From the NCBI RefSeq assembly GCF_003352465.1, contig NZ_CP031153.1, positions 546,465 through 610,464 on the forward strand: DNA of 64,000 bases, given 5' to 3'. The position numbers and the translations under genes are program-made. Every line of letters starts with the position of its first letter. Position 1 is the first letter of the stretch. Below are positions 13,545 to 31,140 of the stretch, one piece after another. This DNA comes from Kordia sp. SMS9 (GTDB lineage Bacteria; Bacteroidota; Bacteroidia; Flavobacteriales; Flavobacteriaceae). The notes beneath the pieces were generated by a model that saw nothing but the letters and a program-made list of their open reading frames with translations, was not told the origin of the DNA and did no database searches.

Positions 13545-14558
13545 TTACTCCGAATATTGACTTGCAGCGGCAGCTAATTTTTTGCGAATACGTTTGCGCA
13601 ACAATCGCGGTTCTAATACTTCAATTGTTTCGCCAAAACCAAGAATCAAGCGTTCCAACTCGAAATTGATGTGTACTTGTAATTGTACCGTAATGCTTCC
13701 ATTTTTATGGACTGAAATAATTTCTTGTGTATGATGAAGCGGTTTTGTGGTGACATACGGCGCGTTGCTTCGATCTATTCTAAGCACAATGCGTTGAATG
13801 TGTTTTTGATCTAAAACCGTCACACCAATTGTGTTTTTATAATACGTATCTCCATCAAATTGTTCGTTGCGGTAAGGAATGTCCAAATCATAATCTACAT
13901 GAATAATTCGGTCCAAAGCCAAGGTCATAATTTTAGGTTTATTCCCAGAAACGCCTACCAAAAACCAGCGATTGTTGAATTCTTTCAAAATAAACGGATG
14001 AAAAATAACTTCGGAAGCTTGGCGCGCTTTAAACGATCTGTACGTCAATCGCAACACGATTTTCTTTAAAATAGCTTGATACAACACATCGAGATGTTGC
14101 AAACCTTTCAAACCTTCATTTTTGTCTAAATGTATAATTGCCGACTGATGTGTTTTTTCGCTATATACCTTATCTTCCAAACGTTGAATGATGCCGCCTA
14201 ATTCTGAAAACAACGAAAAATCTTTAAACTGTTTCAACATTTCTACCGTTTCCGAAAGTACGTTCATGTCATTCTCGGTCAACGGAATATCCGTGATGGA
14301 ATACTCTTCTTCTTCATATTTGTAAAACTTACGATCGTACACTACAATTGGCGCATTATAGCCCAATTTGTCACTGCGCATCATTTGAATATCGAGTTGA
14401 ACCGTTCTGCGACTCACATTTACTTCACGACCTTCATATTCGTGCAACGCGTCTGAACAGGCTTCAATCAAATCGTTCAACGTCCATTGACGATAATGGT
14501 TTTGCAAACATTTATCAATGGTTTTATACCGAATTAGTGCGTTTTTATTAATTGCCAT
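13545..14558 (-). CDS. HTH + WYL-domain transcriptional regulator (YafY/PafBC-like)
   Basis: N-terminal HTH (INKNALIRYKTIDKCLQ...) and a central WYL-type region (...RWFLVGVSGNKPKIMTLALDRI). Divergent from the exonuclease/RtcB genes. Confidence 0.7.
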   Translation of the reverse strand: MAINKNALIRYKTIDKCLQNHYRQWTLNDLIEACSDALHEYEGREVNVSRRTVQLDIQMMRSDKLGYNAPIVVYDRKFYKYEEEEYSITDIPLTENDMNVLSETVEMLKQFKDFSLFSELGGIIQRLEDKVYSEKTHQSAIIHLDKNEGLKGLQHLDVLYQAILKKIVLRLTYRSFKARQASEVIFHPFILKEFNNRWFLVGVSGNKPKIMTLALDRIIHVDYDLDIPYRNEQFDGDTYYKNTIGVTVLDQKHIQRIVLRIDRSNAPYVTTKPLHHTQEIISVHKNGSITVQLQVHINFELERLILGFGETIEVLEPRLLRKRIRKKLAAAASQYSE

Positions 14559-14594
14559 TTTCTTGTATTTGGTGTGAAAATAACAAAAAAATCG

Positions 14595-14620
14595 CTACTG
14601 CGTAAAAAGATTGCGTAGTT
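14595..14620. promoter_or_regulatory. Operator-like motif copy 1 (ctactgcgtaaaaagattgcgtagtt)
   Basis: One of four near-identical ~25-nt motifs (consensus ACTACGYAAAAAKAWTGCGCASTT) in intergenic regions of the RNA-repair island; this copy lies between the WYL regulator and the exonuclease. Confidence 0.5.
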
Positions 14621-14708
14621 AAATAACATTCTTTGCACAAGTTCTTTTACATACATGTGCGTCGGCTTCATCTGTCAAACAAAAACAAATATTAAATTTA
14701 ATTAAAAG

Positions 14709-15260
14709 ATGAAAACAACAAACAAAATCCTAGTAGTAGACTTAGAAGCTACGTGCTGGGAACAAGATGGCGAATACCAACGAGCTCACAGTGAGATTAT
14801 TGAAATTGGTGTTTGCGAATTGGATACCCTTACGGGAGAAATATCCAAGCAACAAGGAATTCTCGTAATTCCTGAACATTCCGAAATCAGTCGATTTTGC
14901 ACAGAACTCACCTCAATTACACCCGAAATGGTAGCGCAAGATGGCGTTCCGTTTGAAGATGCAATTGAGATACTTTTTAACGAGTATGATGCGTCTGCAT
15001 ACACCTGGGCAAGTTACGGCGCGTACGATCGCAACAAAATGATCGAAACATGCAGACAAAAAAATGTCGATTTCCCATTCGGATATCAACACATAAACGT
15101 GAAAGAAGAGTTCAGACGTTGCAACCGAATGCGACGCGGCATCGGAATGGCACGCGCATTAAAACAACTTCGGATTCCTTTAGAAGGAAAACATCACCGA
15201 GGCGTTGATGATGCCAACAACACCGCAAAAATCTTACATTGGTGTTTAAATAATCCGTAA
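14709..15260 (+). CDS. DEDDh-family 3'-5' exonuclease (ERI-1/KapD-like)
   Basis: Exo I motif VVDLEAT, Exo II YGAYD, Exo III HHRGVDDANNTAKI (H-x4-D). Confidence 0.7.
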   Translation: MKTTNKILVVDLEATCWEQDGEYQRAHSEIIEIGVCELDTLTGEISKQQGILVIPEHSEISRFCTELTSITPEMVAQDGVPFEDAIEILFNEYDASAYTWASYGAYDRNKMIETCRQKNVDFPFGYQHINVKEEFRRCNRMRRGIGMARALKQLRIPLEGKHHRGVDDANNTAKILHWCLNNP

Positions 15261-15315
15261 GATGACCTTATAAATTTTTAAATTTTGATTAGCCTGGTGG
15301 CTAATTTTTTTTGCT

Positions 15316-15340
15316 TAAAAAACTTTACTACGTAAAAAGA
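15316..15340. promoter_or_regulatory. Operator-like motif copy 2 (tactacgtaaaaagattgcgcagtt)
   Basis: Second copy of the same motif, upstream of 15453. Confidence 0.5.
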
Positions 15341-15452
15341 TTGCGCAGTTTTTTACTTCTTTTGCCAAAGTTCATTGAAACACTTTTGAAATCAGTTTCC
15401 AAAAGATATGTGTGCCAATCATGACACATATAACTTTTAAAAAACAAACATT

Positions 15453-15749
15453 ATGAATTGGAAAATTCAAAAACTACTTGATGGTGAGACCATCATTTCA
15501 AAAGAACCTGGTAATTCTATGTTGCCACTTTTAAAATCGAAGCAACCTGTAAAGTTGCAGCCTATTTCTTGGGAAGATTGCGAAGTGGGTGATATTGTCT
15601 TTTGTAAAGTTCGCGGAAATGTATTTACACATTTAGTGAAAGGAAAAAACGAACGGCGCGGATTGTTAATTGGAAACAATCATGGCAGAATTAACGGATG
15701 GACAAAAAATGTATATGGTAAAGTAATAGAAATATTACCGATGTCATAG
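15453..15749 (+). CDS. Small S24/S26-like serine peptidase domain protein (LexA/UmuD-like catalytic domain without HTH)
   Basis: GNSMLP motif, which resembles the GDSM catalytic-Ser box of LexA/UmuD and signal peptidase I, with downstream Lys residues; 98 aa. Confidence 0.4.
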   Translation: MNWKIQKLLDGETIISKEPGNSMLPLLKSKQPVKLQPISWEDCEVGDIVFCKVRGNVFTHLVKGKNERRGLLIGNNHGRINGWTKNVYGKVIEILPMS

Positions 15750-15947
15750 ACATTCTTCACGTATTCAAATTAACAATCGTAATATTTTGGGCGTTCCCGC
15801 TAAGCGGTCGGGCTTTCCGTAGTCGCTTTTTTGTGTTGTCATTACAACTCAAAAAGAGCTCCAACAAAACGTCAATCCCTAACGCAAACTACCATTTAAA
15901 ATTCAAACTACATTGCCACAAAATAAAAACCTAAAAACACTACGCAA

Positions 15948-15972
15948 AATAATTGCGCACTTCCAATCAATA
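15948..15972. promoter_or_regulatory. Operator-like motif copy 3 (cactacgcaaaataattgcgcactt)
   Basis: Third copy, ~190 nt upstream of rtcB. Confidence 0.5.
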
Positions 15973-16153
15973 TTTGTTTCGGAATTATAAATAAGGTCAT
16001 TTCTATATGACAAAGTAACAACGCTCCGCTACATATTGAAAGTAGCGGAGTTTACAAAAAAAGTATCATGAAATGAGGCATAACGAGTAGTTGACACCTA
16101 CCAAATGACGATGGCGAATTCCATCTGACAAATTAAAAACAATAAAATAGTAA

Positions 16154-17542
<1,389 letters not shown>

Positions 17543-17586
17543 CCTACATTGTCAAAAACTATCTTAAAAATGCACGGAATAAAAAA

Positions 17587-18054
17587 ATGAAAACAATTAG
17601 TAAATTCGTAAAGTTTTTGGGCATAGTTTTTGGCTTTTTAGGCTTCTTATTGGTCCTTTTACTAGTATCTCCTTGGATCTATGTAAAAAACCGAATTTGG
17701 GGACGAAAACTTCGAAAAAAAATAAAAGCTCAATTAAAAAAATACGATGGGAAAATAATATTTCTATATGGAGAATATCACACCTTTGACTTTGAATGGT
17801 ATTTTCAAAAATTTCATCCAGATATCACTTGTTTGCAAGTTCCTAATCATCCTCCAATGGATCCGTTTATTCTGTATTTAAGTGCTAGAAACCCACCTAA
17901 AAGCTTACCACAATTGGTAAAGGTTACAGACGGACACACCTTTAAAAAAACACACTATTCGTCATTCAAATATTACATACGAAAACAGAAAGATGTCATC
18001 CGTTTTTTTGAACTCATGGAGCGATCTATTAAAAATTTACAAGAAATCGAGTGA
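17587..18054 (+). CDS. Hypothetical membrane-anchored protein
   Basis: ORF track; N-terminal TM (FLGIVFGFLGFLLVLLLV); no recognisable catalytic motif. Confidence 0.45.
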   Translation: MKTISKFVKFLGIVFGFLGFLLVLLLVSPWIYVKNRIWGRKLRKKIKAQLKKYDGKIIFLYGEYHTFDFEWYFQKFHPDITCLQVPNHPPMDPFILYLSARNPPKSLPQLVKVTDGHTFKKTHYSSFKYYIRKQKDVIRFFELMERSIKNLQEIE

Positions 18055-18068
18055 AAAATTAAATCACC

Positions 18069-18782
18069 ATGACCAAAAGAAGCAGAGGAAAAGAAGGAAG
18101 TGACGACCGTTTATTTGGCGATCCAAAAATGCAGTCAAAAATGCGAGAAGCCATCAAAGACTTGTCGTATTTATTGAGCAGAGGATTCTCTGAAAAATCG
18201 TCATTGGCATTGGTTGGAAATCGATATAAGCTCAACAATCGCCAACAACGTGCCGTTCAAGGAATGAGTGAAGCAAGTCACAAACTCGAAAAACGTGCAG
18301 CGAACTGTTTATTGCCAAATCAATTAGCAGAAAAGGAAGTCTATATAGACGGTTTTAATGTATTAATCCTATTAGAAAGTGCGTTGTCGGGCGCGTATCT
18401 CTTCAAAGGTTTAGATGGTTGCTATCGTGATATATCAAGCGTGCATGGAACGTATAAAAAAGTAAAACAAACGCCAGAAGCCATTCAACTCATTGCAAAC
18501 TTTCTACAAGAAAACAAGGTCAAAAAAGCTACTTGGATCTTTGACAAACCTGTTTCCAATAGTGGACGACTAAAAACAATGCTACGAGAATTCGCAGACG
18601 AGCATCAACTCCATTGGGAAATCATTTTAGACAATAATCCTGACAAATTTATCGCAGAAAGTAATCAAATCGCCATCAGTTCGGATGCTTGGATTTTAGA
18701 CAATGCAACAACTTGGTGCAATATGGTACGACAGATTGTAGACGAACACATTCCACAGAAAAATGTAGTGGAATCTGAATAA
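18069..18782 (+). CDS. Hypothetical protein (operon partner of RtcB island)
   Basis: ORF track; 237 aa; no motif I can assign with certainty. Confidence 0.45.
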   Translation: MTKRSRGKEGSDDRLFGDPKMQSKMREAIKDLSYLLSRGFSEKSSLALVGNRYKLNNRQQRAVQGMSEASHKLEKRAANCLLPNQLAEKEVYIDGFNVLILLESALSGAYLFKGLDGCYRDISSVHGTYKKVKQTPEAIQLIANFLQENKVKKATWIFDKPVSNSGRLKTMLREFADEHQLHWEIILDNNPDKFIAESNQIAISSDAWILDNATTWCNMVRQIVDEHIPQKNVVESE

Positions 18783-18786
18783 AAAA

Positions 18787-18812
18787 TTACTACGCAAAAA
18801 TAATGCGCACTT
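18787..18812. promoter_or_regulatory. Operator-like motif copy 4 (ttactacgcaaaaataatgcgcactt)
   Basis: Fourth copy, upstream of the nucleotidyltransferase operon. Confidence 0.5.
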
Positions 18813-19154
18813 ACAAATCATCTTTGAACTCAGAAATACAAAACAACGAAACATATAAAATCATGCAAACTAAAAAAGGTACCGTGTATTAAGTTTTAAC
18901 AAATAACTTAATACAAAATGAAAACACGTGAGAACAAGAAATTTTACAATTTCAAGGAAGTTCACAAACGCAAAAAAAGAACACGAGCTGCAAAAATTCA
19001 CTGGAAAAGCAACACTTGGGAATACCGTCGCTTTTTGCGTCAACAATACCGAACAAAATGCAAAGTCATTCTCAGAAAACAGCTCGAAGGACACGAAATA
19101 GAATTCCCAAGATTCCGAAAAACACTTTGGTGGGAATGGTAAAAACATTTAAAA

Positions 19155-19900
19155 TGAAAACAAGAATACTAGAAAAATTAGCAGAAATAGAACGCGATAA
19201 AAATATCGAAATCTTATTCGCTGTCGAATCAGGAAGCAGAGCTTGGGGCTTTGCTTCTCCCGATTCCGATTATGACATTCGTTTTGTGTACAAACACAAA
19301 ACCGAATGGTATTTGAATCTTTGGGAACAAAAAGATACGATTCAATTCATGACGGAAGACGAATTAGACGGTTCTGGTTGGGACATTAAAAAAGCATTAA
19401 AACTGCTCTCAAAATCGAATGCGTCTTTATTGGGCTGGCTCTTCTCTCCTATTGTGTACAGAAGTTCGGGAACGTTCTTGGAAGAAATGAAAATGGTCGC
19501 TGAAAAGAATTTCAATCCTGTTGCAGGTTTCTTTCACTATCACAGCATGAACAAAAATTTTGAAGAAACGTTAGACACCAATGAAATGACTTTAAAAAGT
19601 TATTTCTATACCATACGAACTGCTTTGTGTGCCAATTGGGTTTACAAAAAGGAAACGGTTCCGCCAGTAAATTTTCGTGAATTATATCCGCTTTTAGATG
19701 AGGAATCTAGTGCTCTTTTGGATGAATTAATTCTGCTAAAAAGCAACGAAATTGAAAAAAGTAATGCGCCTGTGGAGGCTTCTTTAATAAATTTGGTAAA
19801 AAGGATTGTTGCAGAAAACAACGAGATCAAAAATGATCTTAAAAACGTGAAACCAAACCCTGAAGATTTTAATACGCTATTTATAAAAACAATACAATGA
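19155..19900 (+). CDS. Pol-beta superfamily nucleotidyltransferase (COG3541-like), paralog 1
   Basis: ESGSRAWGFASPDSDYDIRFVY matches the G[GS]x9-13 D-x-[DE] pol-beta NTase signature. The start is placed at the internal Met MKTRILEK (the ORF track begins at 19016). Its stop overlaps the next gene (ATGA). Confidence 0.6.
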
Positions 19901-23019: not shown

Positions 23020-23034
23020 AAGCTAAAAGATACA

Positions 23035-23109
23035 GCAGTAGTTCAAAAGAGTTGGAAGAACACTACCTTGCAAAGGTAGAGGATGCGGGTTCGAGTCCCA
23101 TTTACTGCT
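23035..23109 (+). tRNA. tRNA-Cys(GCA)-like
   Basis: Acceptor GCAGTAG/TTACTGC, anticodon arm CTACC-TTGCAAA-GGTAG (anticodon GCA), T-loop GGGTTCGAGTCCC. The T-stem has one mismatch and the D-arm is atypical. Confidence 0.45.
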
Positions 23110-23149
23110 CTTTAAAAACAATAATAAGAAATTTTGATACGCAAAGATT

Positions 23150-23410: not shown

Positions 23411-23412
23411 CA

Positions 23413-23485
23413 ACGGTAGTAGCTCAGTTGGAAGAGCGCATGCCTGTCACGCATGAGGTCGCGGGTTCGAATCTCGTTTACTGTT
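23413..23485 (+). tRNA. tRNA-Asp(GUC)
   Basis: D-arm GCTCAGTTGGAAGAGC, anticodon arm CATGC-CTGTCAC-GCATG (GTC), T-loop GGGTTCGAATCTC. The acceptor pairs with two G-U wobbles. Confidence 0.6.
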
Positions 23486-23507
23486 GCCTATTTAAAAAAA
23501 GAAACAC

Positions 23508-23732
23508 ATGAAATACGCATTAGAAAAAACCACCAATACACATATTTTGGAAGCCGAAAACATAAAAGTTCGCCATACAGTTGGTAGTACGCAAGTATTA
23601 CAAATTGAAGGTGAAGGAATGGTGTCACATGGAGAACACGGAATTATAAAAACAGACAGTAAATATGTGATTAAGTATGTGCAACAAGAATTTAATCCTG
23701 TAACACGCATCATTGAAAATGCTTTTGATTAA
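23508..23732 (+). CDS. Hypothetical small protein
   Basis: ORF track; 74 aa; directly upstream of the 676-aa ORF. Confidence 0.3.
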   Translation: MKYALEKTTNTHILEAENIKVRHTVGSTQVLQIEGEGMVSHGEHGIIKTDSKYVIKYVQQEFNPVTRIIENAFD

Positions 23733-23744
23733 GAGTTTAGGATC

Positions 23745-25775
23745 GTGAAAACCATAAAAATACATACTGAAGAAGATATTTCAAAAATCACGGAAACGGA
23801 TACTATTCGATTAGAAATATATCTAAAAAATGCTGTAATCCCCATTCAGGAAATGAGTGGCGAATTGTACGTACGCGCTGTTGGTTGTAAATTTCCAAAC
23901 TTAACAACCGTTTTCGGATTGGTTTCTTTAGATGCGCATAAAGCGGAATTGCCAAAACTCACAGAAATTCAAGGAAATTTGAACATTCATGGGAATGATA
24001 TTTTACTTCCTGAATTAAGCAAAATATTAGGTGATTTTAAACAACATCATCCTGTAGAATTACCCAAACTCAAAATAATCACGGGAAAATCCAATGTGCC
24101 AAAAAGTTGTATCCCAAAAAAATGGCAACGTGTTCTTTTTCAAAAGGATTTAGATATCTTGGAACAAGGCGAATTATACAATCTTAGTATAGAAAATTGT
24201 AATGTTACTTTGCGTAGTCATGTAATTTATGGAAACTTGAAAACTATCAATGCAAAAGTAAACTGTCCTAACTTAGAAACAATTTATGGTGATTTCACAC
24301 TTGAAATCTCTGATAAATTCAGTAATTATACAGCAAAACCAAGCTTAAATTTTGATGACATTGAAAGTGGAAAAGCAGCAAGTCTTTTTGAAAGTCCCAA
24401 GCTTAAAACAATTCATGGAAGCTGTGAAATCAACACAACAAAACCTATAAATATTGATGTTGAAAACGTTAACGATAGAATTGAAATTCAAAAAGGAAAA
24501 GCTTCTTTTAGAAAACTTCTTAAAACGGGAGCGCTAATTGTAAGAGAAAAATCAAAAATGGTTTGTGATGCGCTCACAGAAACAACAAAGAAACTCGTAA
24601 CGCACCAAGAAAGTTACCTAAGTGCAAAATCACTCTATAAAATTGGAAAACATTGTGGTATCGGTTCCAAAATTGATATTCCGAATTTACTTTTTATTCA
24701 GGGAGATTTATCTTTAAGCCAACGCAATTATAATGATCCAAAAATTAAGCATGAATTCAAAAGTCTAAAATATATAGGTGGAAAAATAACGTTTGATGAA
24801 TTCTGCTCATTTCCTAAATTAGAAGAAGTAAAAGGTGTTTGCAACATAAGAATGTTAAAAAACATCTCTGCTGCAACAGCACCAAAATTAACGTATATAG
24901 ATACCTTAGATATTGGTGAACAACAAAATTCTCGAATTAGAGAACGACTTCCAAGTCTGCAAAAAGTAGGAACAATGATGTATCAAGACAATACTGAACA
25001 TCTAGTTATTGATCATTTTTTTCATACTATAGAAAATCGAAATACAAAATTCATCATCTCAAAGGAATCTTTCTCAATATGGAATAGTTTAAGTGAAGAT
25101 AAATTACCTATACAAAGACTAATTGCTATTTTAAAAATGCGTCATATTTCTTTTGATAATTTTTACACACGTGAAGTGACTCGCGAATGGAAGTATGAAA
25201 GCAATCCGTCTTTTGATGAAATAATTCGTTCCATCAAAAAGAAATGGAAAAAGGTTACGCCATTAACGTATGAAGATATATTTCAACTTCATGACTTTTC
25301 TTTGCGAAGATTTGCGTTTAACTATGTTGGTGTAGACACTTTTATGCAAAAACTAAAAGCAAAACGAATTGCTACAGAAGGAATTGAAGTCAATCATATT
25401 CAATATGATGAATTAGGAAATAAAAAAATGGTGCAAAAACACAACGTTTTTGAAATTTACGAAGCCGATTTTAACAAAGTGGAACACTTTAGATCTTGGC
25501 GCGGAGAAAAACAATTGCGTTATGCTGTAAAATGTTGGTGTACTTCTACCCATCAAGAACATTGGATTTGGATTGAAGAAGCATACAAGAATGATCCACT
25601 TTCTGCGATTGCTTCTACATTTCGCGTGCATGAAAATGTGATTCCATATATTTCTTGTCTAAAGCGTCAAGGAGATATTTTATTATGTGAAATGAAACGA
25701 AATGTACGACCTGAAGGAACAATTAGAGCCTTAACCAAAGAAGAATATTTTGGCCTGCTTGTTGCAGAATCCTAG
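23745..25775 (+). CDS. Hypothetical 676-aa protein with leucine-rich-repeat-like N-terminal half
   Basis: ORF track; repeated LPKLxEIxGNLNIxGN-type units; no signal peptide. Confidence 0.55.
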   Translation: MKTIKIHTEEDISKITETDTIRLEIYLKNAVIPIQEMSGELYVRAVGCKFPNLTTVFGLVSLDAHKAELPKLTEIQGNLNIHGNDILLPELSKILGDFKQHHPVELPKLKIITGKSNVPKSCIPKKWQRVLFQKDLDILEQGELYNLSIENCNVTLRSHVIYGNLKTINAKVNCPNLETIYGDFTLEISDKFSNYTAKPSLNFDDIESGKAASLFESPKLKTIHGSCEINTTKPINIDVENVNDRIEIQKGKASFRKLLKTGALIVREKSKMVCDALTETTKKLVTHQESYLSAKSLYKIGKHCGIGSKIDIPNLLFIQGDLSLSQRNYNDPKIKHEFKSLKYIGGKITFDEFCSFPKLEEVKGVCNIRMLKNISAATAPKLTYIDTLDIGEQQNSRIRERLPSLQKVGTMMYQDNTEHLVIDHFFHTIENRNTKFIISKESFSIWNSLSEDKLPIQRLIAILKMRHISFDNFYTREVTREWKYESNPSFDEIIRSIKKKWKKVTPLTYEDIFQLHDFSLRRFAFNYVGVDTFMQKLKAKRIATEGIEVNHIQYDELGNKKMVQKHNVFEIYEADFNKVEHFRSWRGEKQLRYAVKCWCTSTHQEHWIWIEEAYKNDPLSAIASTFRVHENVIPYISCLKRQGDILLCEMKRNVRPEGTIRALTKEEYFGLLVAES

Positions 25776-26460
25776 ATATCAATAGGGTTAGAATAATTAT
25801 AAATAACACCCAAAATTTGGAAGAAACCCTATAAAAATGACATATTTGCCACACTAATGACAAAAAACTATTTACATATAGCCTCAATTTGCCTGAAAAG
25901 TCAGGACACAAATCGCGGAATGGTTGAACCATTTTGGCGAAACGAGACGCTTTATGTACATTTTTATCAGTGAAGTTTATGATGAAATAACACAAAAATT
26001 ATACAAATAGTAAAGCGTCCAAGGAATTGGGCGCTTTTTTTATGAAAAAAAATTAAAAAATGTTCAAAGCATAATCAAATAGAAACATAAAAGGTTGAAA
26101 CAAAAAGCAATTGAGAGACAGACAGTTGGCAAAAAGTTCAATATCCGTTGCATAACGGACAGGAATTCCCATATCTAAATCTAAACATAACTACTTGATT
26201 ATCAATAAAATAAATTTAAAAAAATTTGTGTAATCAAAAAATCGTTTTCATATTTGCAACGTCAAAAACAAAAAACGACAATATAAAAAACATCATGAAA
26301 TATACGATACATCACATATCCGCCTTAGCAAACATTCTCCGATCACTGGAAAATTGCAGCTTGTTTGTTTGGGAACAGAAGGGAGATTTTATGTATAGAA
26401 AAAAATGGGAGTATGATAAAGATACGTTACTATGATCGTAACTATATAGAAACTTTATAA

Positions 26461-26492
26461 AAGCATCTCCCAAAAAAGAGATGCTTTTTTTA
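26461..26492 (+). terminator. Rho-independent terminator
   Basis: GCATCTC...GAGATGC hairpin followed by a T-run, immediately before the tRNA array. Confidence 0.6.
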
Positions 26493-26513
26493 TGGTTTTT
26501 ATTTAACAAAAAA

Positions 26514-26588
26514 TGATGCATAGCTTAGTTGGTTAGCCCAGAGGCGCTTTTAACGTCAAGGTCGTGAGTTCGAACCTCACTGCGTCAA
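26514..26588 (+). tRNA. tRNA-Lys(UUU)-like
   Basis: Acceptor TGATGCA/TGCGTCA, anticodon loop CTTTTAA, T-arm GTGAG-TTCGAAC-CTCAC. The anticodon stem has a mismatch. Confidence 0.5.
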
Positions 26589-26594
26589 CAAAAA

Positions 26595-26681
26595 GGAAGA
26601 GCAAGCCAATTGGCGGTGGCCACGGTCTTGAAAACCGTTCGGAGTTAATGACTCGTGTGGGTTCGACTCCCACTTCTTCCG
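26595..26681 (+). tRNA. tRNA-Ser(UGA), type II
   Basis: Acceptor GGAAGAG/TTCTTCC, anticodon arm ACGGT-CTTGAAA-ACCGT, long variable arm, T-arm GTGGG-TTCGACT-CCCAC. Confidence 0.6.
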
Positions 26682-26691
26682 CAACTAATTT

Positions 26692-26778
26692 GGAGTGTAG
26701 GTAAATATTGGTTCGTTACGCTTGACTGCTAATCAAGTCCGTTTAACCGCGGTGAAGGTTCAATTCCTTTGCGCTCCG
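26692..26778 (+). tRNA. tRNA-Ser(GCU), type II
   Basis: Acceptor GGAGTGT/GCGCTCC (G-U wobbles), anticodon arm CTTGA-CTGCTAA-TCAAG, long variable arm, T-loop GGTTCAATTCC. Confidence 0.55.
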
Positions 26779-26787
26779 CAACATATT

Positions 26788-26914
26788 GGGGATATAGTTT
26801 ACCAAGCTAAAACAGTGGGTTTAACTCGATGATACCTATTTGATATTATGGTCTCATTGAATTCGCAAGCTTATTTGCTTCTCGCAGCACGGAGTGCAAG
26901 TCTCCGTATCTCCA
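26788..26914 (+). other. Oversized (127-nt) tRNA-like element
   Basis: Good acceptor GGGGATA/TATCTCC, D-arm GTTT-ACCAAGCTA-AAAC and T-like arm CGGAG-TGCAAGT-CTCCG, but ~50 extra nt in between with no clean anticodon arm. The T-loop has G at position 55. Confidence 0.35.
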
Positions 26915-26920
26915 CAACAT

Positions 26921-26992
26921 GATATTATAGCTCAATGGCAGAGCAAAGACCTGTTAAGTCTGAGGTTGAAGGTTCGAATCCTTCCGATATCG
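26921..26992 (+). tRNA. tRNA-Asn(GUU)
   Basis: D-arm GCTCAATGGCAGAGC, anticodon loop CTGTTAA, T-arm GAAGG-TTCGAAT-CCTTC. 3' end ...CGATATC-G-CA. Confidence 0.6.
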
Positions 26993-26996
26993 CAAC

Positions 26997-27069
26997 GACA
27001 AGGTGGCTGAATGGCAAAGGCAGCAGTCTGCAAAACTGTTTTGTATGAGTTCGAATCTCATCCTTGTCT
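26997..27069 (+). tRNA. tRNA-Cys(GCA)
   Basis: Acceptor GACAAGG/CCTTGTC perfect, anticodon arm GCAGT-CTGCAAA-ACTGT, T-arm ATGAG-TTCGAAT-CTCAT. Confidence 0.65.
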
Positions 27070-27117
27070 CAATGATTATGTAGTATCAAACTTGTTTGAA
27101 TAGTATATAATTTACTT

Positions 27118-27200
27118 GGAAGTGTTGAGAAATTGGTTGGCTTGCCAGACTGTAAATCTGGTCTCTTCGGAGCGTGTAGGTTCGAGTCCTACTACTTCCA
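27118..27200 (+). tRNA. tRNA-Tyr(GUA), type II
   Basis: Acceptor GGAAGTG/TACTTCC, anticodon arm CCAGA-CTGTAAA-TCTGG, long variable arm, T-arm GTAGG-TTCGAGT-CCTAC. Confidence 0.65.
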
Positions 27201-27206
27201 CAACAC

Positions 27207-27278
27207 ACGCTTGTGGTGTAACTGGTAGCATGTACGTCTCCAAAACGTACGGTTGAGGTTCAAATCCTTGCGGGCGTG
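27207..27278 (+). tRNA. tRNA-Trp(CCA)
   Basis: Anticodon arm TACGT-CTCCAAA-ACGTA, T-loop GGTTCAAATCC. The acceptor pairs with two G-U wobbles. Confidence 0.55.
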
Positions 27279-27282
27279 CAAA

Positions 27283-27440
27283 ATATAGCTATGGTGTAAT
27301 GGATAGCACATGAGATTTAGCTCACATGTTATTCATTATAGATTAAGCAGTTCGTGAATGTGAAAACATTTCTAACCTCATAGTCTAAGTTCGAAATGCT
27401 TTGCATTCATGAGTTCCTATTTATTAAGATAAGAACAAAA
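27283..27440 (+). pseudogene. Degenerate tRNA-Arg-like 5' half followed by ~100 nt of unassigned structured sequence
   Basis: Starts ATAGCTATGGTGTAATGGATAGCACA (same acceptor/D-arm as the tRNA-Arg at 27888), but the anticodon arm is broken and no intact T-arm/acceptor follows. Only an AAGTTCGAAATGC T-loop-like fragment is present. Confidence 0.35.
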
Positions 27441-27467
27441 CGAACTAATCTTAGTAGCTATACAAAT

Positions 27468-27539
27468 AGTATCGTGACTCAACGGTAGAGTGCTCGACTG
27501 TCTCTCGAGAAGTTGCGGGTTCGAATCCCGTCGGTACTG
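27468..27539 (+). tRNA. tRNA-Asp(GUC)-like (pyrimidine at position 37)
   Basis: D-arm ACTCAACGGTAGAGT, anticodon arm CTCGA-CTGTCTC-TCGAG, T-arm GCGGG-TTCGAAT-CCCGT, acceptor AGTATCG/CGGTACT. Confidence 0.5.
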
Positions 27540-27545
27540 CAAAAT

Positions 27546-27618
27546 CTGGGAATAGAACAATTGGCTGTTTACTCGCCTTGGACGCGAGAGGATGTAGGTT
27601 CGAATCCTGCTTCCCAGA
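27546..27618 (+). tRNA. tRNA-Pro(UGG)
   Basis: Acceptor CTGGGAA/TTCCCAG perfect, anticodon arm CTCGC-CTTGGAC-GCGAG, T-arm GTAGG-TTCGAAT-CCTGC. Confidence 0.6.
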
Positions 27619-27709
27619 CGACTAAATCAAAGCAAGCTTGCTTGAATTTGATTTGCAGTGAGGCATAGCAGGAACACTTTGCAAATCCTGCTTCTGAAAC
27701 AAATAAAAT

Positions 27710-27781
27710 GCTCCGTTCGTCTAATGGCTAGGACACCTGCCTTTCGAGCAGATAATAAGAGTTCGATTCTCTTACGGAGTA
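27710..27781 (+). tRNA. tRNA-Glu(UUC)
   Basis: Acceptor GCTCCGT/ACGGAGT, D-arm GTCTAATGGCTAGGAC, anticodon loop CTTTCGA, T-arm AAGAG-TTCGATT-CTCTT. Confidence 0.55.
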
Positions 27782-27787
27782 CAAAAT

Positions 27788-27860
27788 GCAGAGGTGGCGG
27801 AATGGCATACGCAGCTGTCTTAGAAGCAGTTTTTTGAGAGTTCGAATCTCTCTCTCTGTA
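27788..27860 (+). tRNA. Atypical tRNA: anticodon UAG (Leu) on a 73-nt type-I body
   Basis: Acceptor GCAGAGG/TCTCTGT (G-U wobbles), anticodon arm GCTGT-CTTAGAA-GCAGT, 5-nt variable loop, T-arm GAGAG-TTCGAAT-CTCTC. Bacterial tRNA-Leu normally has a long variable arm. Confidence 0.4.
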
Positions 27861-27887
27861 CAAACGCAATCTTGAAAGGAGTGCAAC

Positions 27888-27959
27888 AAGTTTATGGTGT
27901 AATGGATAGCACATTGGCCTACGAAGCCAAGAGTATAGGTTCGAATCCTATTAGACTTA
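27888..27959 (+). tRNA. tRNA-Arg(ACG)
   Basis: D-arm GTGTAATGGATAGCAC, anticodon arm TTGGC-CTACGAA-GCCAA, T-arm ATAGG-TTCGAAT-CCTAT. Confidence 0.6.
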
Positions 27960-27965
27960 CAATAT

Positions 27966-28037
27966 TGATCTGTGGTGTAACGGTTAGCACACGAGACTTT
28001 GACTCTCGGGGAAGAGGTTCGGTTCCTCTCAGATCTA
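27966..28037 (+). tRNA. tRNA-Gln(UUG)
   Basis: Anticodon arm CGAGA-CTTTGAC-TCTCG perfect, T-arm AGAGG-TTCGGTT-CCTCT, acceptor ...GATCTG/CAGATCT. Confidence 0.6.
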
Positions 28038-28041
28038 CTAT

Positions 28042-28137
28042 AGCGATATAGCTTAATTGGTAAAGCACTGGTCTCATAAGCCAGAAGTTGAAATGCCTGT
28101 ACTGAACTTGATTCAGTATCTAAGATTTCTATCGCCA
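28042..28137 (+). pseudogene. tRNA-Met/Ile2(CAU)-like gene whose T-loop is replaced by a ~29-nt palindromic (REP-like) insertion
   Basis: Acceptor AGCGATA, D-arm GCTTAATTGGTAAAGC, anticodon arm CTGGT-CTCATAA-GCCAG, then T-stem GAAAT/ATTTC enclosing GCCTGTACTGAACTTGATTCAGTATCTAAG in place of the 7-nt T-loop. It is a paralog of the intact tRNA-Ile that follows. Confidence 0.5.
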
Positions 28138-28145
28138 CTAAAAAT

Positions 28146-28218
28146 AGTGATATAGCTTAACTGGTAAAGCGTCAATCTGATAAGTTGGCAGATGAAAGTT
28201 CAAATCTTTCTATCACTA
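28146..28218 (+). tRNA. tRNA-Ile(GAU)
   Basis: Acceptor AGTGATA/TATCACT perfect, D-arm GCTTAACTGGTAAAGC, anticodon loop CTGATAA, T-arm GAAAG-TTCAAAT-CTTTC. Confidence 0.65.
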
Positions 28219-28225
28219 CAAAAAT

Positions 28226-28298
28226 GGTGACTTTAGTTTATTTGGTAAAACGCCTCACTGTGAATGAGAGGAACAGGGTTCGATCCCCGAAGTCACCC
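28226..28298 (+). tRNA. tRNA-His(GUG) with encoded G-1
   Basis: 5' GGTGACTT..., anticodon loop CTGTGAA, 3' ...AAGTCACC-C (G-1:C73 pair typical of bacterial tRNA-His). The T-stem is imperfect. Confidence 0.55.
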
Positions 28299-28303
28299 AA
28301 CCA

Positions 28304-28427
28304 GGAATAATGACAGAGTTGGTCAATGCGATGGATTGAAATGAGTTTACGAATTCATCGAAACCTATTTAATAAAATAGAATTCTATGAGATAAACCCA
28401 GAGATATAGGTTCGAATCCTATTTATT
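28304..28427 (+). other. Oversized (124-nt) tRNA-like element
   Basis: Acceptor GGAATAA/TTATTCC perfect and T-arm ATAGG-TTCGAAT-CCTAT, but ~50 extra nt internally, including a GAATTC-centred palindrome; no clean anticodon arm. Confidence 0.35.
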
Positions 28428-28533
28428 CCACAAAAGAAATGTAGTTTAAAATTAAAATAGCGAGCTAGTATCTCGAAGATGCAAGTAAAGTCTTGCCATT
28501 TCTCAAATTAAAAATTAATAAAAACAAACAGTC

Positions 28534-28848
28534 ATGAGACCAGATGTATTACAAAGGTTCTTTTACAGAACTGAAGATTCAGGAAGATTCCTTGTGACTT
28601 CAAAAAGAACAGGAGTCACCTATTTTGTAGAACCAATAGCTACTGGAAAGCCTGCTATTTTATGGGGCGATGTAGATCCAGCTACAAATAAATTGACGGG
28701 AGATTATGGAACTAAAAGAAGAGGCGCCGTTTTGCCAGAAGATTCTCTGATTACTAAGGAGAATGGTTTTCAAAATATTTCCACATTCAAAGGAAGTCCT
28801 TTCGGAGAAATTGATCGCAGAGATCGATTGTATGAAGATAAAATTTAA
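28534..28848 (+). CDS. Hypothetical protein
   Basis: ORF track; 104 aa; between the tRNA array and the RNA ligase. Confidence 0.4.
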   Translation: MRPDVLQRFFYRTEDSGRFLVTSKRTGVTYFVEPIATGKPAILWGDVDPATNKLTGDYGTKRRGAVLPEDSLITKENGFQNISTFKGSPFGEIDRRDRLYEDKI

Positions 28849-28884
28849 TAATAAAAAAGTAATCTGAAAAGATTTAAAAACGTC

Positions 28885-28954
28885 ATTCTGAACTTGATTC
28901 AGAATCTCACTCTACTAATTTTCAATTTATGATGAGAAACCGAATCAAGTTCGG
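28885..28954. repeat. Two adjacent REP-like palindromes (attctgaacttgattcagaat and ccgaatcaagttcgg), opposite orientation
   Basis: 15-nt palindromic cores related by compensatory changes. The same core occurs at 28100-28118 (inside the tRNA-Met-like gene) and at 42354-42372. Confidence 0.6.
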
Positions 28955-29006
28955 CTTGACGAAAATCCAACTTTTTAGGAAATTCTAAAAAAACAAAAAA
29001 GAAATC

Positions 29007-30014
29007 ATGTTTAAAAAATATAATAGTATCGAAAATACCTACCGTGAAAAGGCAACCGAACAAGTATATCTTCACGGGTATGGAAACGATGTATTTGTGG
29101 TACAAGAAAAAGTACATGGCGCTAATTTTTCTTTCATTACGGATGGAGATACAATTAGAGTTGCCAAACGTACATGTCTAATTGCAGAAGATGAAAACTT
29201 CAACAATCACAGATATGTTTTACACAAATATGAAAAAGCAATTACAGGGCTTTTCAAACGTGTAAAGAACGATTTTCCAGAAACAGAAATGATCACTGTT
29301 TTTGGTGAAATTTTCGGAGGAAGCTATCCGCATGCGGAGGTAGAAAAGATCGATGGAATGGTTCGCATTCAAAAAGGTGTTTTTTACAGTCCAGAAAATG
29401 ACTTTTACGCGTTTGATATTTGTATCAATCACACGCAATATCTTGATGTTACCATCGCGAACACATACTTTGAAGCAACAGGAATGTTGTATGCAAAAAC
29501 ACTTTTTGCAGGAACCTTTAGCGAATGTATGGCATATCCAAATGCATTTGAATCAAAAGTTCATGAATGGCTACATCTTCCAAAGATTGAAGACAATGTT
29601 TGTGAAGGAACCATCATCAAACCATTAACTAGCAAGCGTTTTGGAAATGGACAACGTGTTATTTTCAAAAACAAAAACGAAAAATGGTCTGAAAAGTCAC
29701 ATGAAAAACGATCAAGAGTTTCAAAGCCAAGTGCAATAGGAATGCTTTCACATACTGAAAAAGAATTGATGCACACGCTTTTGGGCTACGTGAACGAAAA
29801 TCGTTTGATGAATGTACAAAGTAAGCTTGGAGAGTTTTCACCAAAACAAACGGGAAAAACGATCGGATTGCTTGCCAAAGATGCACTAGAAGATTTTGTA
29901 AAAGATCATGAAAATGATTGGAATAACGTACAAAAAGAGCATCAAAAAGTATTAACAAAAATACTGAACAAAGAAGCAGTTACTGTCGTAAAAAAAGTAC
30001 TTCTTTTTAGGTAA
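29007..30014 (+). CDS. ATP-dependent RNA ligase, T4 Rnl2-like
   Basis: Nucleotidyltransferase motif I EKVHGANF (compare T4 Rnl2 EKIHGTN), motif IV VCEGTIIKP, motif V VIFKNKNEKW; 335 aa. Confidence 0.7.
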   Translation: MFKKYNSIENTYREKATEQVYLHGYGNDVFVVQEKVHGANFSFITDGDTIRVAKRTCLIAEDENFNNHRYVLHKYEKAITGLFKRVKNDFPETEMITVFGEIFGGSYPHAEVEKIDGMVRIQKGVFYSPENDFYAFDICINHTQYLDVTIANTYFEATGMLYAKTLFAGTFSECMAYPNAFESKVHEWLHLPKIEDNVCEGTIIKPLTSKRFGNGQRVIFKNKNEKWSEKSHEKRSRVSKPSAIGMLSHTEKELMHTLLGYVNENRLMNVQSKLGEFSPKQTGKTIGLLAKDALEDFVKDHENDWNNVQKEHQKVLTKILNKEAVTVVKKVLLFR

Positions 30015-30023
30015 TGTAGAAAT

Positions 30024-30060
30024 GACTGTCCAAGCTTCTATTCTTGGACAGTCTTTATAA
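30024..30060 (+). terminator. Rho-independent terminator after RNA ligase
   Basis: GACTGTCCAAG...CTTGGACAGTC hairpin followed by TTTAT. Confidence 0.55.
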
Positions 30061-30142
30061 AAGATACAAACAATGTGTTCAAGTAAAAACAGCCGCAAAC
30101 CAAAACTGTTGGCTGTAGTTAACTTGATATAAAATTAAACAG

Positions 30143-30628
30143 ATGAAAATAACAATGAACAAGTGGCGAAACTTTTCAGGCAAAGTGTTCAATGAACCCA
30201 TAACTACACTTGTTGAGAATGCCATTGTAAAAGAACAAAAAGCTGGTCACAGATTGAAAATCTATGTGGGTTCGGATTCACAAGCCTATAAAACACATGT
30301 AAACTATGGTACTGTCATAGTGATTCTTAGAAAAGGAAAAGGTGGTTTTATGTTTATCAAAAACGAAAAAGGAACCACTAAAATAGGACTAAAAGAGCGT
30401 ATGCTAAGAGAGGTAGCACTATCCGTAGAAACAGCCTACCGCATTTGTGACCTATTGGAAAAATACAATATTGAATTGGAAGTTCATGCAGATATCAATA
30501 CAGACTCAAAATTTGAATCAAATGTGGCACTTAAAGAAGCGATGGGATATATCATAGGAATGGGCTTTGCATTCAAGGCAAAACCGTATGCTTTCGCAAG
30601 TTCTTCTTGTGCAGATAGTATTGTCTAA
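30143..30628 (+). CDS. Hypothetical protein (possibly RNase H-like YkuK/DUF458 fold)
   Basis: ORF track; YVGSDSQ motif is reminiscent of YkuK-family proteins; the assignment is uncertain. Confidence 0.4.
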   Translation: MKITMNKWRNFSGKVFNEPITTLVENAIVKEQKAGHRLKIYVGSDSQAYKTHVNYGTVIVILRKGKGGFMFIKNEKGTTKIGLKERMLREVALSVETAYRICDLLEKYNIELEVHADINTDSKFESNVALKEAMGYIIGMGFAFKAKPYAFASSSCADSIV

Positions 30629-30934
30629 ATAACATTATATCTCTTCTTTTTTAATGAATATTTTAACTGCGCAAAATGAATGCGTAGTACTGTAAAATAT
30701 TTGTTCCCGAAAGAAAAACAGTTGCTAATCAATATACTGTTTATGCAGTTAATCATCCTCGCTACACGTTGATGGTAGCGAGGTTTAATAAAAAAGTATA
30801 AAATCTCGATTATCGAGTTAAAAATATCAAGCGAGTCTTGTTGCGTGTTTCTATATAGCACCATTGTATAAAACGTTGCACAATGTGTATCATGCTTTTA
30901 TATGCAACTCGACTTGGAGGCTTCGGGTTATAGC

Positions 30935-31140
30935 CAAATATAATCCTCCATAGAGAAACATGGGTCATGGGTTCGAATCCCATTCTCGCAAGAGATAGTT
31001 CAGCGGTTAGAACAATGTTTTTGGATGTTGCCGGTTCGAGTCCGGTCAGTAGTTCCGAAAGGGCGGCTATTGTAACTCAATTGGTAGAGTACTACACTTT
31101 TAATGTAGATTGAAGTTCGATTTCTTCTAAAAAAATCACC
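30935..31140 (+). pseudogene. Three tRNA-like fragments (minihelix-like T-arm+acceptor; D-arm+T-arm without acceptor pairing; Lys(UUU)-like D/anticodon arms without acceptor)
   Basis: ATGGGTTCGAATCCCAT flanked by GAGAA/TTCTC; GTTCAGCGGTTAGAAC ... GCCGGTTCGAGTCCGGT; ACTCAATTGGTAGAGT + CTACA-CTTTTAA-TGTAG + AAGTTCGATTTCTTC. None folds into a complete cloverleaf. Confidence 0.4.

Follow-up and report, generated by a model that had tools for sequence, protein, structure and literature searches.

A 19-kb segment of the Kordia sp. SMS9 chromosome (positions 13545-32551 of the window, the 64,000-nt stretch of contig NZ_CP031153.1 analysed here) combines two RNA ligases, enzymes predicted to trim or restore RNA ends, a predicted tRNA-cleaving nuclease and a large number of tRNA-related genes. 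We propose, with a probability of roughly 0.7, that this locus is a chromosomal, co-regulated RNA-damage response island that has accreted around a core module found across the Bacteroidota. The core would consist of orf235, a predicted tRNase of the colicin D type, a translationally coupled atypical short-chain dehydrogenase/reductase (SDR) with a zinc ribbon, and tandem tRNA-like RNAs with hypervariable anticodon arms. This proposal builds on the gene content of the island, the folds and motifs of its products, the co-conservation of its parts and a cis motif that recurs in front of its operons. The island ends about 1.4 kb further downstream than in an earlier interpretation of the locus made from the DNA letters and open reading frames (ORFs), hereafter the sequence-only reading, and thus includes the Band-7 gene at 31451-32551.

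Results

The SDR gene (21652-23019, + strand; 455 aa; PF00106, 6e-19) is followed by five paralogous genes for tRNA-like RNAs (23032-23488, + strand) with the nominal anticodons GCA, CAU, AAC, ACC and GUC, which have a common D-arm sequence (UAGYUYAAnUGGAARARC) whatever their nominal anticodon. This pairing was found in all 39 informative loci of the SDR clade, defined as the 40 loci with at least 41% SDR identity, and extends over several Bacteroidota families. Each locus contains one to seven tRNA-like genes on the same strand, which either start 7-140 nt past the SDR stop codon or end 20-140 nt before the SDR start codon. Next to more distant SDR homologues from other phyla (35-40% identity), ARAGORN or a dedicated covariance model detected tRNA-like genes in none of 47 loci. 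The protein itself is about 60% identical across Flavobacteriia, Sphingobacteriia, Cytophagia and Saprospiria, and its wider family comprises at least 598 related genomic loci. The SDR has four invariant cysteines (CxxC...CPxC) and the motifs TGGRVK[IV]G[YF] and HPHTNMTK, the latter at the position of the canonical SDR catalytic tyrosine, which is not conserved. SDR/tRNA-like modules of Bacteroidota type with 41-57% SDR identity were also seen on contigs of metagenome-assembled genomes labelled Campylobacteraceae, Acinetobacter, Desulfobacterales and SAR324 (loci L028, L036, L040 and L043), which reflects either mis-binning or horizontal transfer.

In an alignment of 102 of the tRNA-like RNAs, we observed 26-51 double-sided compensatory changes per base pair in the acceptor, D and T stems, and this covariation identifies them as real structured RNAs. 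A covariance model built from the alignment (R1) assigned 56-73 bits to the five Kordia genes, compared with 30-61 bits for the Rfam tRNA model, and lowered the scores of most tRNAs of the long array described below. The anticodon arms of these RNAs are hypervariable. U33 is present in 54 of 105 (51%), compared with 46 of 47 array tRNAs (98%), the anticodon loop deviates from 7 nt in 8 of 105, and the nominal anticodons ACC, AUC, AGC and ACA are common. A 3' CCA is rarely encoded. Given that U33 is found in only about half of them, that some loops have odd sizes and that most genes lack an encoded CCA, we read these RNAs as a dedicated, structured tRNA-like family whose members are unlikely to act as decoders. 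Several distant modules (L028, L040 and L043, as well as the Saprospiraceae loci L014 and L018) do encode a 3' CCA.

Directly upstream of the SDR gene lies orf235 (20955-21662, + strand; 235 aa; 100% identical to KORDIASMS9_00516), whose stop codon overlaps the SDR start by 11 nt and whose homologues occupy the same position in 20 other loci. The protein had not been annotated before and has no match in Pfam, NCBIfam or the PHROGs. Its modelled architecture comprises an N-terminal helical domain and a C-terminal tRNase domain resembling colicin D and CdiA-CT toxins, which combines a BECR alpha+beta fold with a catalytic-type histidine. Pairwise alignment with the colicin-D/CdiA-CT tRNase revealed a common KHxxR..WGxVKGS motif, and the residues E151, K152, H153 and R156 are invariant in the 28 members of the family. 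The fold is represented by 6D7Y, a BECR-fold tRNase with a catalytic histidine; its substrates are tRNA-Gln and tRNA-Pro, and colicin D is the protein nearest to it in fold (PMC9086364). No translocation or secretion domain is present in orf235, and no small immunity ORF is evident, the downstream gene being that of the 455-aa SDR. We conclude that orf235 is a predicted cytoplasmic tRNase of the colicin D type. Relatives of its C-terminal domain are fused behind RNA-binding ASCH domains in some organisms and follow an EamA transporter in others. A group of relatives with about 700-733 aa (P0278, P0286, P0310, P0318 and P0337) had been considered as orf235-SDR fusions, an idea that was rejected: they join orf235 to long pentapeptide-repeat regions, as checked at the domain level in P0278, P0310 and P0337.

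The SDR/tRNA-like pair has recurrent company. Apart from orf235 (20 loci), tblastn searches detected next to it COG2454 (13 loci), TatD (11), a 676-aa protein (9-10), RlaP (6-7), phage-type RtcB, PNKP and an S24-like ORF (5 each), Ro60 and Rnl2 (3 each) and Band-7 (2); a sixth match for RtcB (L024) does not exceed 23% identity. An unbiased census of the Pfam families in 133 ORFs that flank the pair in 22 loci yielded as top families DUF434/DUF5616 (5), TatD (4), RlaP (4), RtcB (3), AAA_33/HAD_PNKP (3/2), Rnl2-type ligases (2) and Rnl1-type ligases (2). These two sets of counts show that the core is repeatedly embedded in RNA-repair neighbourhoods. Modules reduced to the SDR, tRNA-like RNAs and a large (640-aa) protein, devoid of any repair gene, are found in Pedobacter and on one metagenome contig. 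In Kordia sp. SMS9, the corresponding protein is encoded at 23745-25775 (+ strand; 676 aa) and combines a repeat-rich, leucine-rich-repeat-like N-terminal half with a conserved C-terminal domain (YAVKCWCTST..EHWIWIE..FRVHENVIP..CLKRQGD). Searches of PDB, Pfam, NCBIfam, PHROGs and PADLOC brought up no relative of this protein, and a word-indexed search of 5.8 billion proteins returned only nine homologues. Members of this 640-680-aa family always adjoin an SDR/tRNA-like pair (L005, L007, L024, L025, L027 and L029-L031), and a gene of this type follows the pair in about ten loci, including those of Pedobacter, Tenacibaculum, Aureivirga and Sphingobacterium.

Five of the island's transcription units are linked by a 19-nt motif (TRCGYAAAANNAWTGCGYA) with two TGCGYA half-sites spaced by 13 nt. 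All of its five matches in the window are located on the + strand and inside the island, compared with 0.13 matches expected by shuffling. They lie upstream of the RNase T-like exonuclease gene, in the intergenic region from which the WYL regulator gene diverges (14599-14617), the S24-like ORF (15329-15347), the RtcB gene (15941-15959), the RlaP1-RlaP2-orf235-SDR unit (18791-18809) and the Y-like RNA and Band-7 gene (30668-30686). The motif is kept in the WYL intergenic region of K. antarctica, and the exact pattern occurs at 23 sites in 17 related loci, invariably on the gene strand and typically just before an SDR, orf235, RtcB or TROVE gene. Its distribution covers loci of Flavobacteriaceae, Weeksellaceae, Saprospiraceae and Crocinitomix (those listed being L003, L008, L013-L022, L025, L033, L039 and L042). 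As a candidate target of the WYL regulator, we considered the motif sequence TGCGTAAAAAGATTGCGTA.

Within the genus, the island is collinear with a locus of Kordia algicida OT-1 at about 83% nucleotide identity (17677-32589), which additionally carries genes for an R2K ATP-grasp protein and Ro60/TROVE after the Band-7 gene. K. antarctica possesses a reduced version with the WYL gene, the S24-like ORF, RtcB, a small ORF, an orf235 homologue, the SDR gene and about seven tRNA or tRNA-like genes, which occupies the same place in the chromosome, its flanking genes matching positions 41128-45544 of the window. The island is thus a chromosomal locus whose gene content has expanded and contracted among Kordia species.

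The remaining coding genes are described here in their order along the island. At its left end, the gene for the WYL + WCX regulator (13545-14558, - strand; PF13280, 6.9e-12; PF25583, 5.3e-15; PADLOC WYL model, 5e-26), which has an orthologue in the same position in K. antarctica (L008), is transcribed divergently from the repair genes. These start with a DEDDh (RNase T-like) 3'-5' exonuclease (14709-15260, + strand; PF00929, 2.5e-15) that has homologues in five related loci. The S24-like peptidase domain reported by the sequence-only reading corresponds to a 98-aa ORF (15453-15749, + strand) with distant similarity to LexA-type peptidases; a Pfam scan of the ORF itself gave no match, whereas a homologous 108-aa protein of Flavobacterium reichenbachii has a weak precomputed match to PF00717, and the ORF recurs in five loci. 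The RtcB protein (16157-17542, + strand; PF01139, 6.2e-37) shows the active-site motif HGAGR, with its conserved histidine, at residue 367 and is predicted to join 3'-phosphate or 2',3'-cyclic phosphate ends to 5'-OH ends. It belongs to a phage-type clade, matches phrog_1075 over its full length (7e-99) and has its closest GenBank-phage relatives in Tenacibaculum and Cellulophaga phages (58-68% identity).

Downstream of RtcB, a 155-aa ORF with an N-terminal hydrophobic segment and a weak LapA_dom match (17587-18054, + strand) is conserved in K. algicida and K. antarctica. It is followed by a COG2454 protein (18069-18782, + strand; DUF434 + DUF5616; PF18481, 7e-55; PF04256, 2e-15), a predicted nuclease of a family that has been classified as NYN-type PIN-like (PMC5499597). 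The two RlaP nucleotidyltransferases, RlaP1 (19016-19900, + strand; PF10127, 2.6e-69) and the phage-like RlaP2 (19897-20958, + strand; PF10127, 1.5e-29; phrog_388, 2e-56), are encoded between RtcB upstream and Rnl2 downstream, in line with the association with RNA ligases that gave the family its name; according to the literature, such enzymes add nucleotides to cleaved tRNA before ligation. Beyond the tRNA genes, a 104-aa ORF (28534-28848, + strand) is 86% conserved in K. algicida and without a match in Pfam or other family libraries, including the PHROGs. Next comes the Rnl2-type RNA ligase (29007-30014, + strand; PF09414, 4.5e-21; PF18043, 1.6e-21), a nick-sealing type of enzyme acting on 3'-OH and 5'-phosphate ends, which combines a domain with the motif I lysine (KVHGAN, K35) and an Rnl2-specific C-terminal domain, matches phrog_548 (2e-70) and shows 35% identity over its full length to the Rnl2 of a T4-like phage. 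The last two genes encode a YkuK-like protein with an RNase H fold (30143-30628, + strand; PF04308, 6e-33) and an SPFH/Band-7 (slipin-like) protein (31451-32551, + strand; PF01145, 3e-29), which is 87% identical in K. algicida, where the Ro60/TROVE gene comes next. Pfam matches and motifs thus bear out every protein that the sequence-only reading had named, that is, the WYL regulator, the exonuclease, RtcB with its HGAGR motif, the two PF10127 nucleotidyltransferases and Rnl2, and add the COG2454 nuclease, the zinc-ribbon SDR, the YkuK-like protein and Band-7, which it had not mentioned.

The same reading had counted about 27 tRNA or tRNA-like genes. We come close to this number, with 21 genes called by ARAGORN and 24 Rfam matches at the gathering score (5 + 18 + 1), arranged in three clusters (23032-23488, 26514-28504 and 31066-31135), plus degenerate pieces at 26788-26917, 27284-27420 and 30955-31050. 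However, rather than one private, structurally deviant set, as previously suggested, these genes represent three different, unrelated classes. Many non-canonical members had been reported; the description fits the SDR-associated family, whereas it does not apply to most of the second class, a long tRNA array (26514-28504, + strand). This array contains 18 Rfam matches and 16 genes called by ARAGORN (Lys, two Ser, Asn, Cys, Tyr, Trp, Asp, Pro, Glu, Leu, Arg, Gln, CAU, Ile and His), together with interrupted Ala and Phe copies, a Thr-like copy, gene fragments and partial duplicates of tRNA-Arg and tRNA-Pro. Its members are mostly canonical, with C32-U33 in 16 of the 16 ARAGORN-called genes and Rfam scores of 45-69 bits. 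Genes for Gly, Ala, Val, Thr, Phe and intact Met had been noted as missing, which is correct for the intact genes of the array, whereas Phe and Ala are in fact represented by the interrupted copies.

In the tRNA-Ala(UGC) copy, the anticodon loop is interrupted by a 54-nt insertion that is related, in the opposite orientation, to an exact 54-nt insertion in the anticodon loop of the tRNA-Phe(GAA) copy. These inserts (26820-26873 and 28340-28393; core CGAATTCAWYGARACC) are the only two copies in the window and are absent from K. algicida, where both tRNA genes are intact. They may represent a very small mobile element or resemble an intron. Archaeal-type bulge-helix-bulge introns were considered and rejected: folding gave no support for them (z -1.9 to -2.5, local hairpins only), and one of the two insertions is not at position 37/38. 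The tRNA(CAU) gene, in turn, contains a palindromic hairpin of about 23 nt (CTGAAYTTGATTCAG) in its T-loop (28093-28120). Because a similar palindrome is located upstream of RtcB in K. antarctica (L008, 7105-7179), palindromes of the CTGAAYTTGATTCAG type suggest a family of repeats in Kordia that resemble repetitive extragenic palindromic (REP) elements or miniature inverted-repeat transposable elements (MITEs). None of the array genes encodes a CCA end, and in most of them (26514-28510) the discriminator base is directly followed by (A)CAA or CAAA, a pattern that may reflect either a common signal for processing or an earlier duplication of units.

With its insertions, fragments and partial duplicates, the array is decaying. 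Homologous arrays exist in K. algicida and K. antarctica, with a content that differs among the three species. Since the decoding of Phe and Ala codons is essential, yet the respective copies are interrupted, and since the content varies among congeners, the array is probably supernumerary, with housekeeping tRNA copies residing elsewhere in the genome. In a different family, Chryseobacterium shigense (L044) has an independent 14-tRNA array, followed by a YkuK-like gene, Rnl2 and, further on, RNase T, and oriented divergently from one tRNA-like gene and an SDR gene. Because of this independent arrangement, the association of an array with Rnl2 and the YkuK-like gene is not an accident of Kordia. 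Among the 40 SDR loci, long arrays were found only in the three Kordia species and C. shigense. With its length, the uniform orientation of its genes (all on the + strand in the window) and this sporadic distribution, the Kordia array fits, in these respects, the description of an L-array (Santamaria-Gomez et al. 2021). A tRNA array unit was defined by Tran et al. (2016; PMC4758250) through a minimum of 20 tRNA genes and a density of 2 or more per kb; with 18 Rfam matches in 1.99 kb, the main array reaches this density and falls just below the required number. Pooling it with the five SDR-linked genes gives 23 in 5.5 kb, but those five belong to a different RNA family.

The third class is a composite tRNA-derived non-coding RNA element upstream of the Band-7 gene (30955-31135, + strand). 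It comprises a T-arm piece, a mini-tRNA made of a D-arm and a T-arm, and an AT-rich tRNA-like unit, and scores 35.3 bits with the Rfam tRNA model at 31066-31135. With the model of YrlA (RF02553), it reaches 32.5 bits, short of the gathering score of 69; the T-arm, a stem and the D-arm align, the Ro-binding stem of bacterial Y RNAs does not, and the window contains no TROVE gene. Comparable degenerate pieces are found in other genera, either upstream of Band-7 or next to Ro60/TROVE genes (L003, L023, L015 and L016). We describe the element as apparently Y-RNA-like.

The window as a whole is a Bacteroidota-type chromosome segment with a GC content of about 36%, including a set of genes for an ECF sigma factor, FecR and a SusC-like receptor at 6784-10948. 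To the left of this set, a 1364-aa protein (2200-6294, - strand) combines YadA-head repeats with a C-terminal C1q/TNF-like domain in an unusual adhesin-like architecture. On the other side of the island, three adjacent genes (36909-40342), which encode an APH-like kinase, a HopA1-family protein and a LanC-like cyclase, have the appearance of a cluster for lanthipeptide-type modification; the corresponding region of K. antarctica lacks them. The native flank that is conserved with this species (41128-45544) encodes a radical SAM protein (DUF3641), a rhodanese-sized ORF, a DUF2064/CofC-like protein, a PNP_UDP phosphorylase and a methyltransferase. Further downstream, a C-5 cytosine DNA methyltransferase (52053-53114, - strand; PF00145, 1.5e-96) with unannotated neighbours may be part of a restriction-modification system.

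Discussion

How might the different components of the island work together? We infer that the locus is inducible and that, the operons marked by the motif would be switched on in response to an attack on the translation apparatus or to its stalling. End-processing and sealing enzymes of largely phage-like ancestry, grafted around the core, would then act on damaged RNA. RtcB would be responsible for breaks with 2',3'-cyclic phosphate and 5'-OH ends and Rnl2 for nicks with 3'-OH and 5'-phosphate ends, while the two RlaP enzymes may restore lost nucleotides and the DEDDh exonuclease may trim ends, with the NYN nuclease and the YkuK-like protein alongside. Band-7 could serve as a scaffold with its own Y-RNA-like RNA. 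In this way, tRNAs cut in the anticodon loop would be healed and re-ligated, and the array would provide replacement tRNAs. The cutter could be a foreign ribotoxin or the tRNase of the island itself, in which case cleavage would lead to a reversible arrest of translation. The tRNA-like RNAs, finally, would act as decoys, sensors or cofactors of the tRNase/SDR pair rather than as decoders, and a role as decoys or sensors is our leading guess, held with low confidence.

Such a functional link, as opposed to chance adjacency, had already been suspected in the sequence-only reading, and the collinearity among Kordia species, the 39/39 pairing of SDR and tRNA-like genes, the C. shigense array and the motif at five units now speak in its favour. 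The very low-probability alternative that ordinary chromosomal tRNA genes happen to lie near RNA-repair genes accounts for the canonical folds of most array members, but the invariant pairing across several Bacteroidota families, the recurrence of the array with Rnl2 and the YkuK-like gene as neighbours in another family, and the signs of dispensability in the array (interrupted Phe and Ala copies, variable content among congeners) already contradict it as judged from sequence comparison. The more specific idea of a dedicated anti-ribotoxin or tRNA-rescue module fares less well. It gains from the functional linkage, but because the island encodes its own predicted tRNase of the anticodon-nuclease type, a purely anti-ribotoxin reading would be incomplete; self-inflicted cut-and-repair and rescue from foreign ribotoxins are equally possible.

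Several observations weigh against a unified damage-response island. The orf235 gene is missing from about half of the SDR/tRNA-like loci, and long arrays are present in only 3-4 of the 40 loci, so that the array is an accessory rather than a defining part of the system. No copy of the 19-nt motif is found directly upstream of the array, which is preceded by a terminator-like hairpin (26450-26497), which makes its co-regulation with the repair genes no more than a possibility. In addition, tblastn detected WYL homologues in Kordia loci only, and these were not among the top families of the Pfam census, whereas the motif is distributed far more widely, which makes the WYL protein no more than a candidate for the factor that binds it. 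As for the SDR, its structure model is of low confidence in the N-terminal part and too poor there for a fold search, and the literature searched holds no precedent for an SDR in RNA repair or for a link between an SDR, tRNA-like RNAs and RNA repair.

Among the alternatives, it is possible, albeit doubtful, that the core is a toxin-antitoxin-like or abortive-infection module, with orf235 as the toxin, the tRNA-like RNAs as decoy antitoxins and the repair enzymes serving only to reverse self-damage. This notion overlaps with the damage-response island proposed above and differs from it in that self-inflicted cleavage would be the primary function. It draws on the colicin-D/CdiA-CT fold of orf235, with a conserved catalytic-type histidine and no secretion domain, and on the presence of tandem structured RNA genes in the same operon, whose hypervariable anticodon arms are what would be expected of substrate mimics. 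There may also be a precedent in the immunity protein of colicin D (ImmD), which is a tRNA mimic, to go by the title of Graille et al. (2004) as cited in PMC9086364. However, the tRNA-like RNAs always accompany the SDR and not orf235, which about half of the loci do without, and the role of the SDR would be left unexplained. Moreover, no PADLOC defence model was matched, and the RNA units are unlike the short direct repeats processed by the toxins of type III (ToxIN-like) systems: they are cloverleaves of 70-79 nt located downstream of the SDR gene, rather than short repeats upstream of the nuclease gene.

It is unlikely that the locus is a domesticated phage cassette or prophage remnant, in which the ligases, nucleotidyltransferases and array of a large phage, once an anti-defence package of spare tRNAs and of repair directed against the anticodon nucleases of the host, persist without a function at the level of the host. 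RtcB, RlaP2 and Rnl2 match phage families from end to end, the nearest RtcB relatives are those of the Tenacibaculum and Cellulophaga phages, jumbo phages combine tRNA sets with RtcB, Rnl2 and RlaP, and the insertions and fragments in the array would fit the decay of such a cargo. On the other hand, the ORFs annotated with Pfam in the window, on the island and around it, include no gene for an integrase, capsid, tail or terminase (attachment sites were not searched systematically), and no prophage could be recognised. The closest RtcB genes of phages lie in neighbourhoods that show no synteny with the island, and the array has no extended match to any GenBank phage. Three Kordia species share the same chromosomal site, the SDR core is absent from IMG/VR viral contigs except for three distant matches, and a conserved motif of host type precedes the operons.

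Quite unlikely, too, is a tRNA-dependent biosynthetic or RNA-modification pathway made up of the SDR, the tRNA-like RNAs and the 676-aa protein, in which the SDR modifies the RNA or a moiety attached to it and the link to repair is secondary. The high identity of the SDR across orders resembles that of an enzyme under strong constraint, minimal modules without repair genes do occur in Pedobacter and on a metagenome contig, and some distant family members encode the 3' CCA. However, the catalytic tyrosine position is not conserved, U33 is missing from half of the RNAs, a CCA end is not encoded by most of their genes, and the recurrent neighbours are RNA-repair rather than biosynthetic enzymes.

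Returning to the damage-response island, it is tempting to go a step further and regard the ColD-like tRNase, the zinc-ribbon SDR and the tRNA-like RNAs, with their own 19-nt regulon motif, as an undescribed ribonucleoprotein system of the Bacteroidota, onto which repair enzymes and arrays dock as accessories. In this tentative scenario, which is less likely than not, the tRNA mimics would be programmable decoys or sensors for anticodon nucleases or else substrates of a new NAD(P)-dependent RNA chemistry. More speculative still is the thought that the 54-nt insertions in the Phe and Ala genes might be removed by a nuclease and the ligases of the island, which would amount to protein-dependent tRNA splicing in a bacterium.

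Long tRNA arrays and RNA-repair operons are both poorly understood, and a connection between them has been shown experimentally in only one cyanobacterium, where the genes are scattered. In one co-marked locus, the Kordia island joins a predicted anticodon nuclease with ligases for both kinds of ends and with enzymes that restore nucleotides, along with putative scaffolds, their RNAs and spare tRNAs, and its culturable marine host makes the logic of cutting, repairing and replacing directly testable. If the tRNA-like RNAs indeed turned out to be decoys or sensors of tRNases, they would reveal a new principle of immunity or regulation by tRNA mimicry.

The combination of genes in the island had been regarded as undescribed. 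For much of it, this is not the case. In Anabaena, TrcR acts through repeated operator motifs as a common repressor of the trn L-array, rtcB and a slipin (SPFH) gene, all of which respond to ribosome-targeting antibiotics by induction, and the neighbourhoods of long, horizontally acquired arrays are enriched in RNA-processing genes, including rtcB (PMC8421152, PMC10272220). Like this L-array/TrcR system of Anabaena sp. PCC 7120, the Kordia locus ties a long same-strand tRNA array, some of whose members are non-canonical, to rtcB, a slipin (SPFH/Band-7) gene and further RNA-processing neighbours, and has direct-repeat motifs common to its promoters. In contrast to it, the Kordia genes belong to a member of the Bacteroidota and lie together in one island, where those of Anabaena are dispersed, a WYL protein takes the place of the RHH repressor TrcR as candidate regulator, and the motif is a different one, with no copy directly before the array. 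Moreover, the island adds Rnl2, two RlaP enzymes, an NYN nuclease, the ColD-like tRNase and the SDR/tRNA-like core, and no HNH homing endonuclease was seen in it.

A second parallel leads to ligase operons containing RlaP, which Burroughs and Aravind reportedly described in 2016 together with scaffolds formed by SPFH/Band-7 proteins with a novel tRNA-like RNA and by Ro60/TROVE proteins with Y RNAs. The systems of this work are reported to bring together a ligase, a nucleotidyltransferase, end-processing enzymes and a scaffold with a cognate non-coding RNA. The island would resemble them in having RlaP near RtcB and Rnl2, a tRNA-like RNA before Band-7 and, in the K. algicida version, Ro60.

In the rsr-yrlBA-rtcBA operon of Salmonella, a tRNA-like domain has been proposed to act as a competitive inhibitor of an anticodon nuclease, and the operon is induced by tRNA fragments (PMC7790460, PMC4201824). 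Both loci encode RtcB together with a non-coding RNA that mimics tRNA. However, the Salmonella regulator is RtcR, a sigma-54/CARF protein, and the Kordia window has no Ro60 gene; unlike YrlA, the SDR-associated RNAs are complete cloverleaves, and the Y-like element stays at 32.5 bits, below the gathering score of 69. The repair sets of jumbo and T4-like phages (RtcB/Rnl1/Rnl2/RlaP/Pnkp; PMC7824862) consist of the same enzyme families along with 18-22 tRNA genes, and the enzymes of the island are nearest to phage proteins. The island differs from these sets as a chromosomal locus kept among congeners, with no phage structural genes seen and a cell-specific SDR core. Compared with the colicin D and CdiA-CT(PABL017) toxins (PMC9086364), finally, orf235 lacks translocation or secretion domains and a small immunity gene, has an N-terminal helical domain, overlaps the SDR gene and is part of a repair operon.

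Collectively, co-regulation of RtcB with an array and a slipin, as known from Anabaena, the tRNA and repair sets of phages, and the RlaP, Band-7 and Ro60 systems are already published. For the pairing of the SDR with tRNA-like RNAs, the literature searched offered no functional explanation. It is in this core module of SDR, ColD-like tRNase and tRNA-like RNAs, and in the 19-nt motif that goes with it, that the Kordia island may be new.

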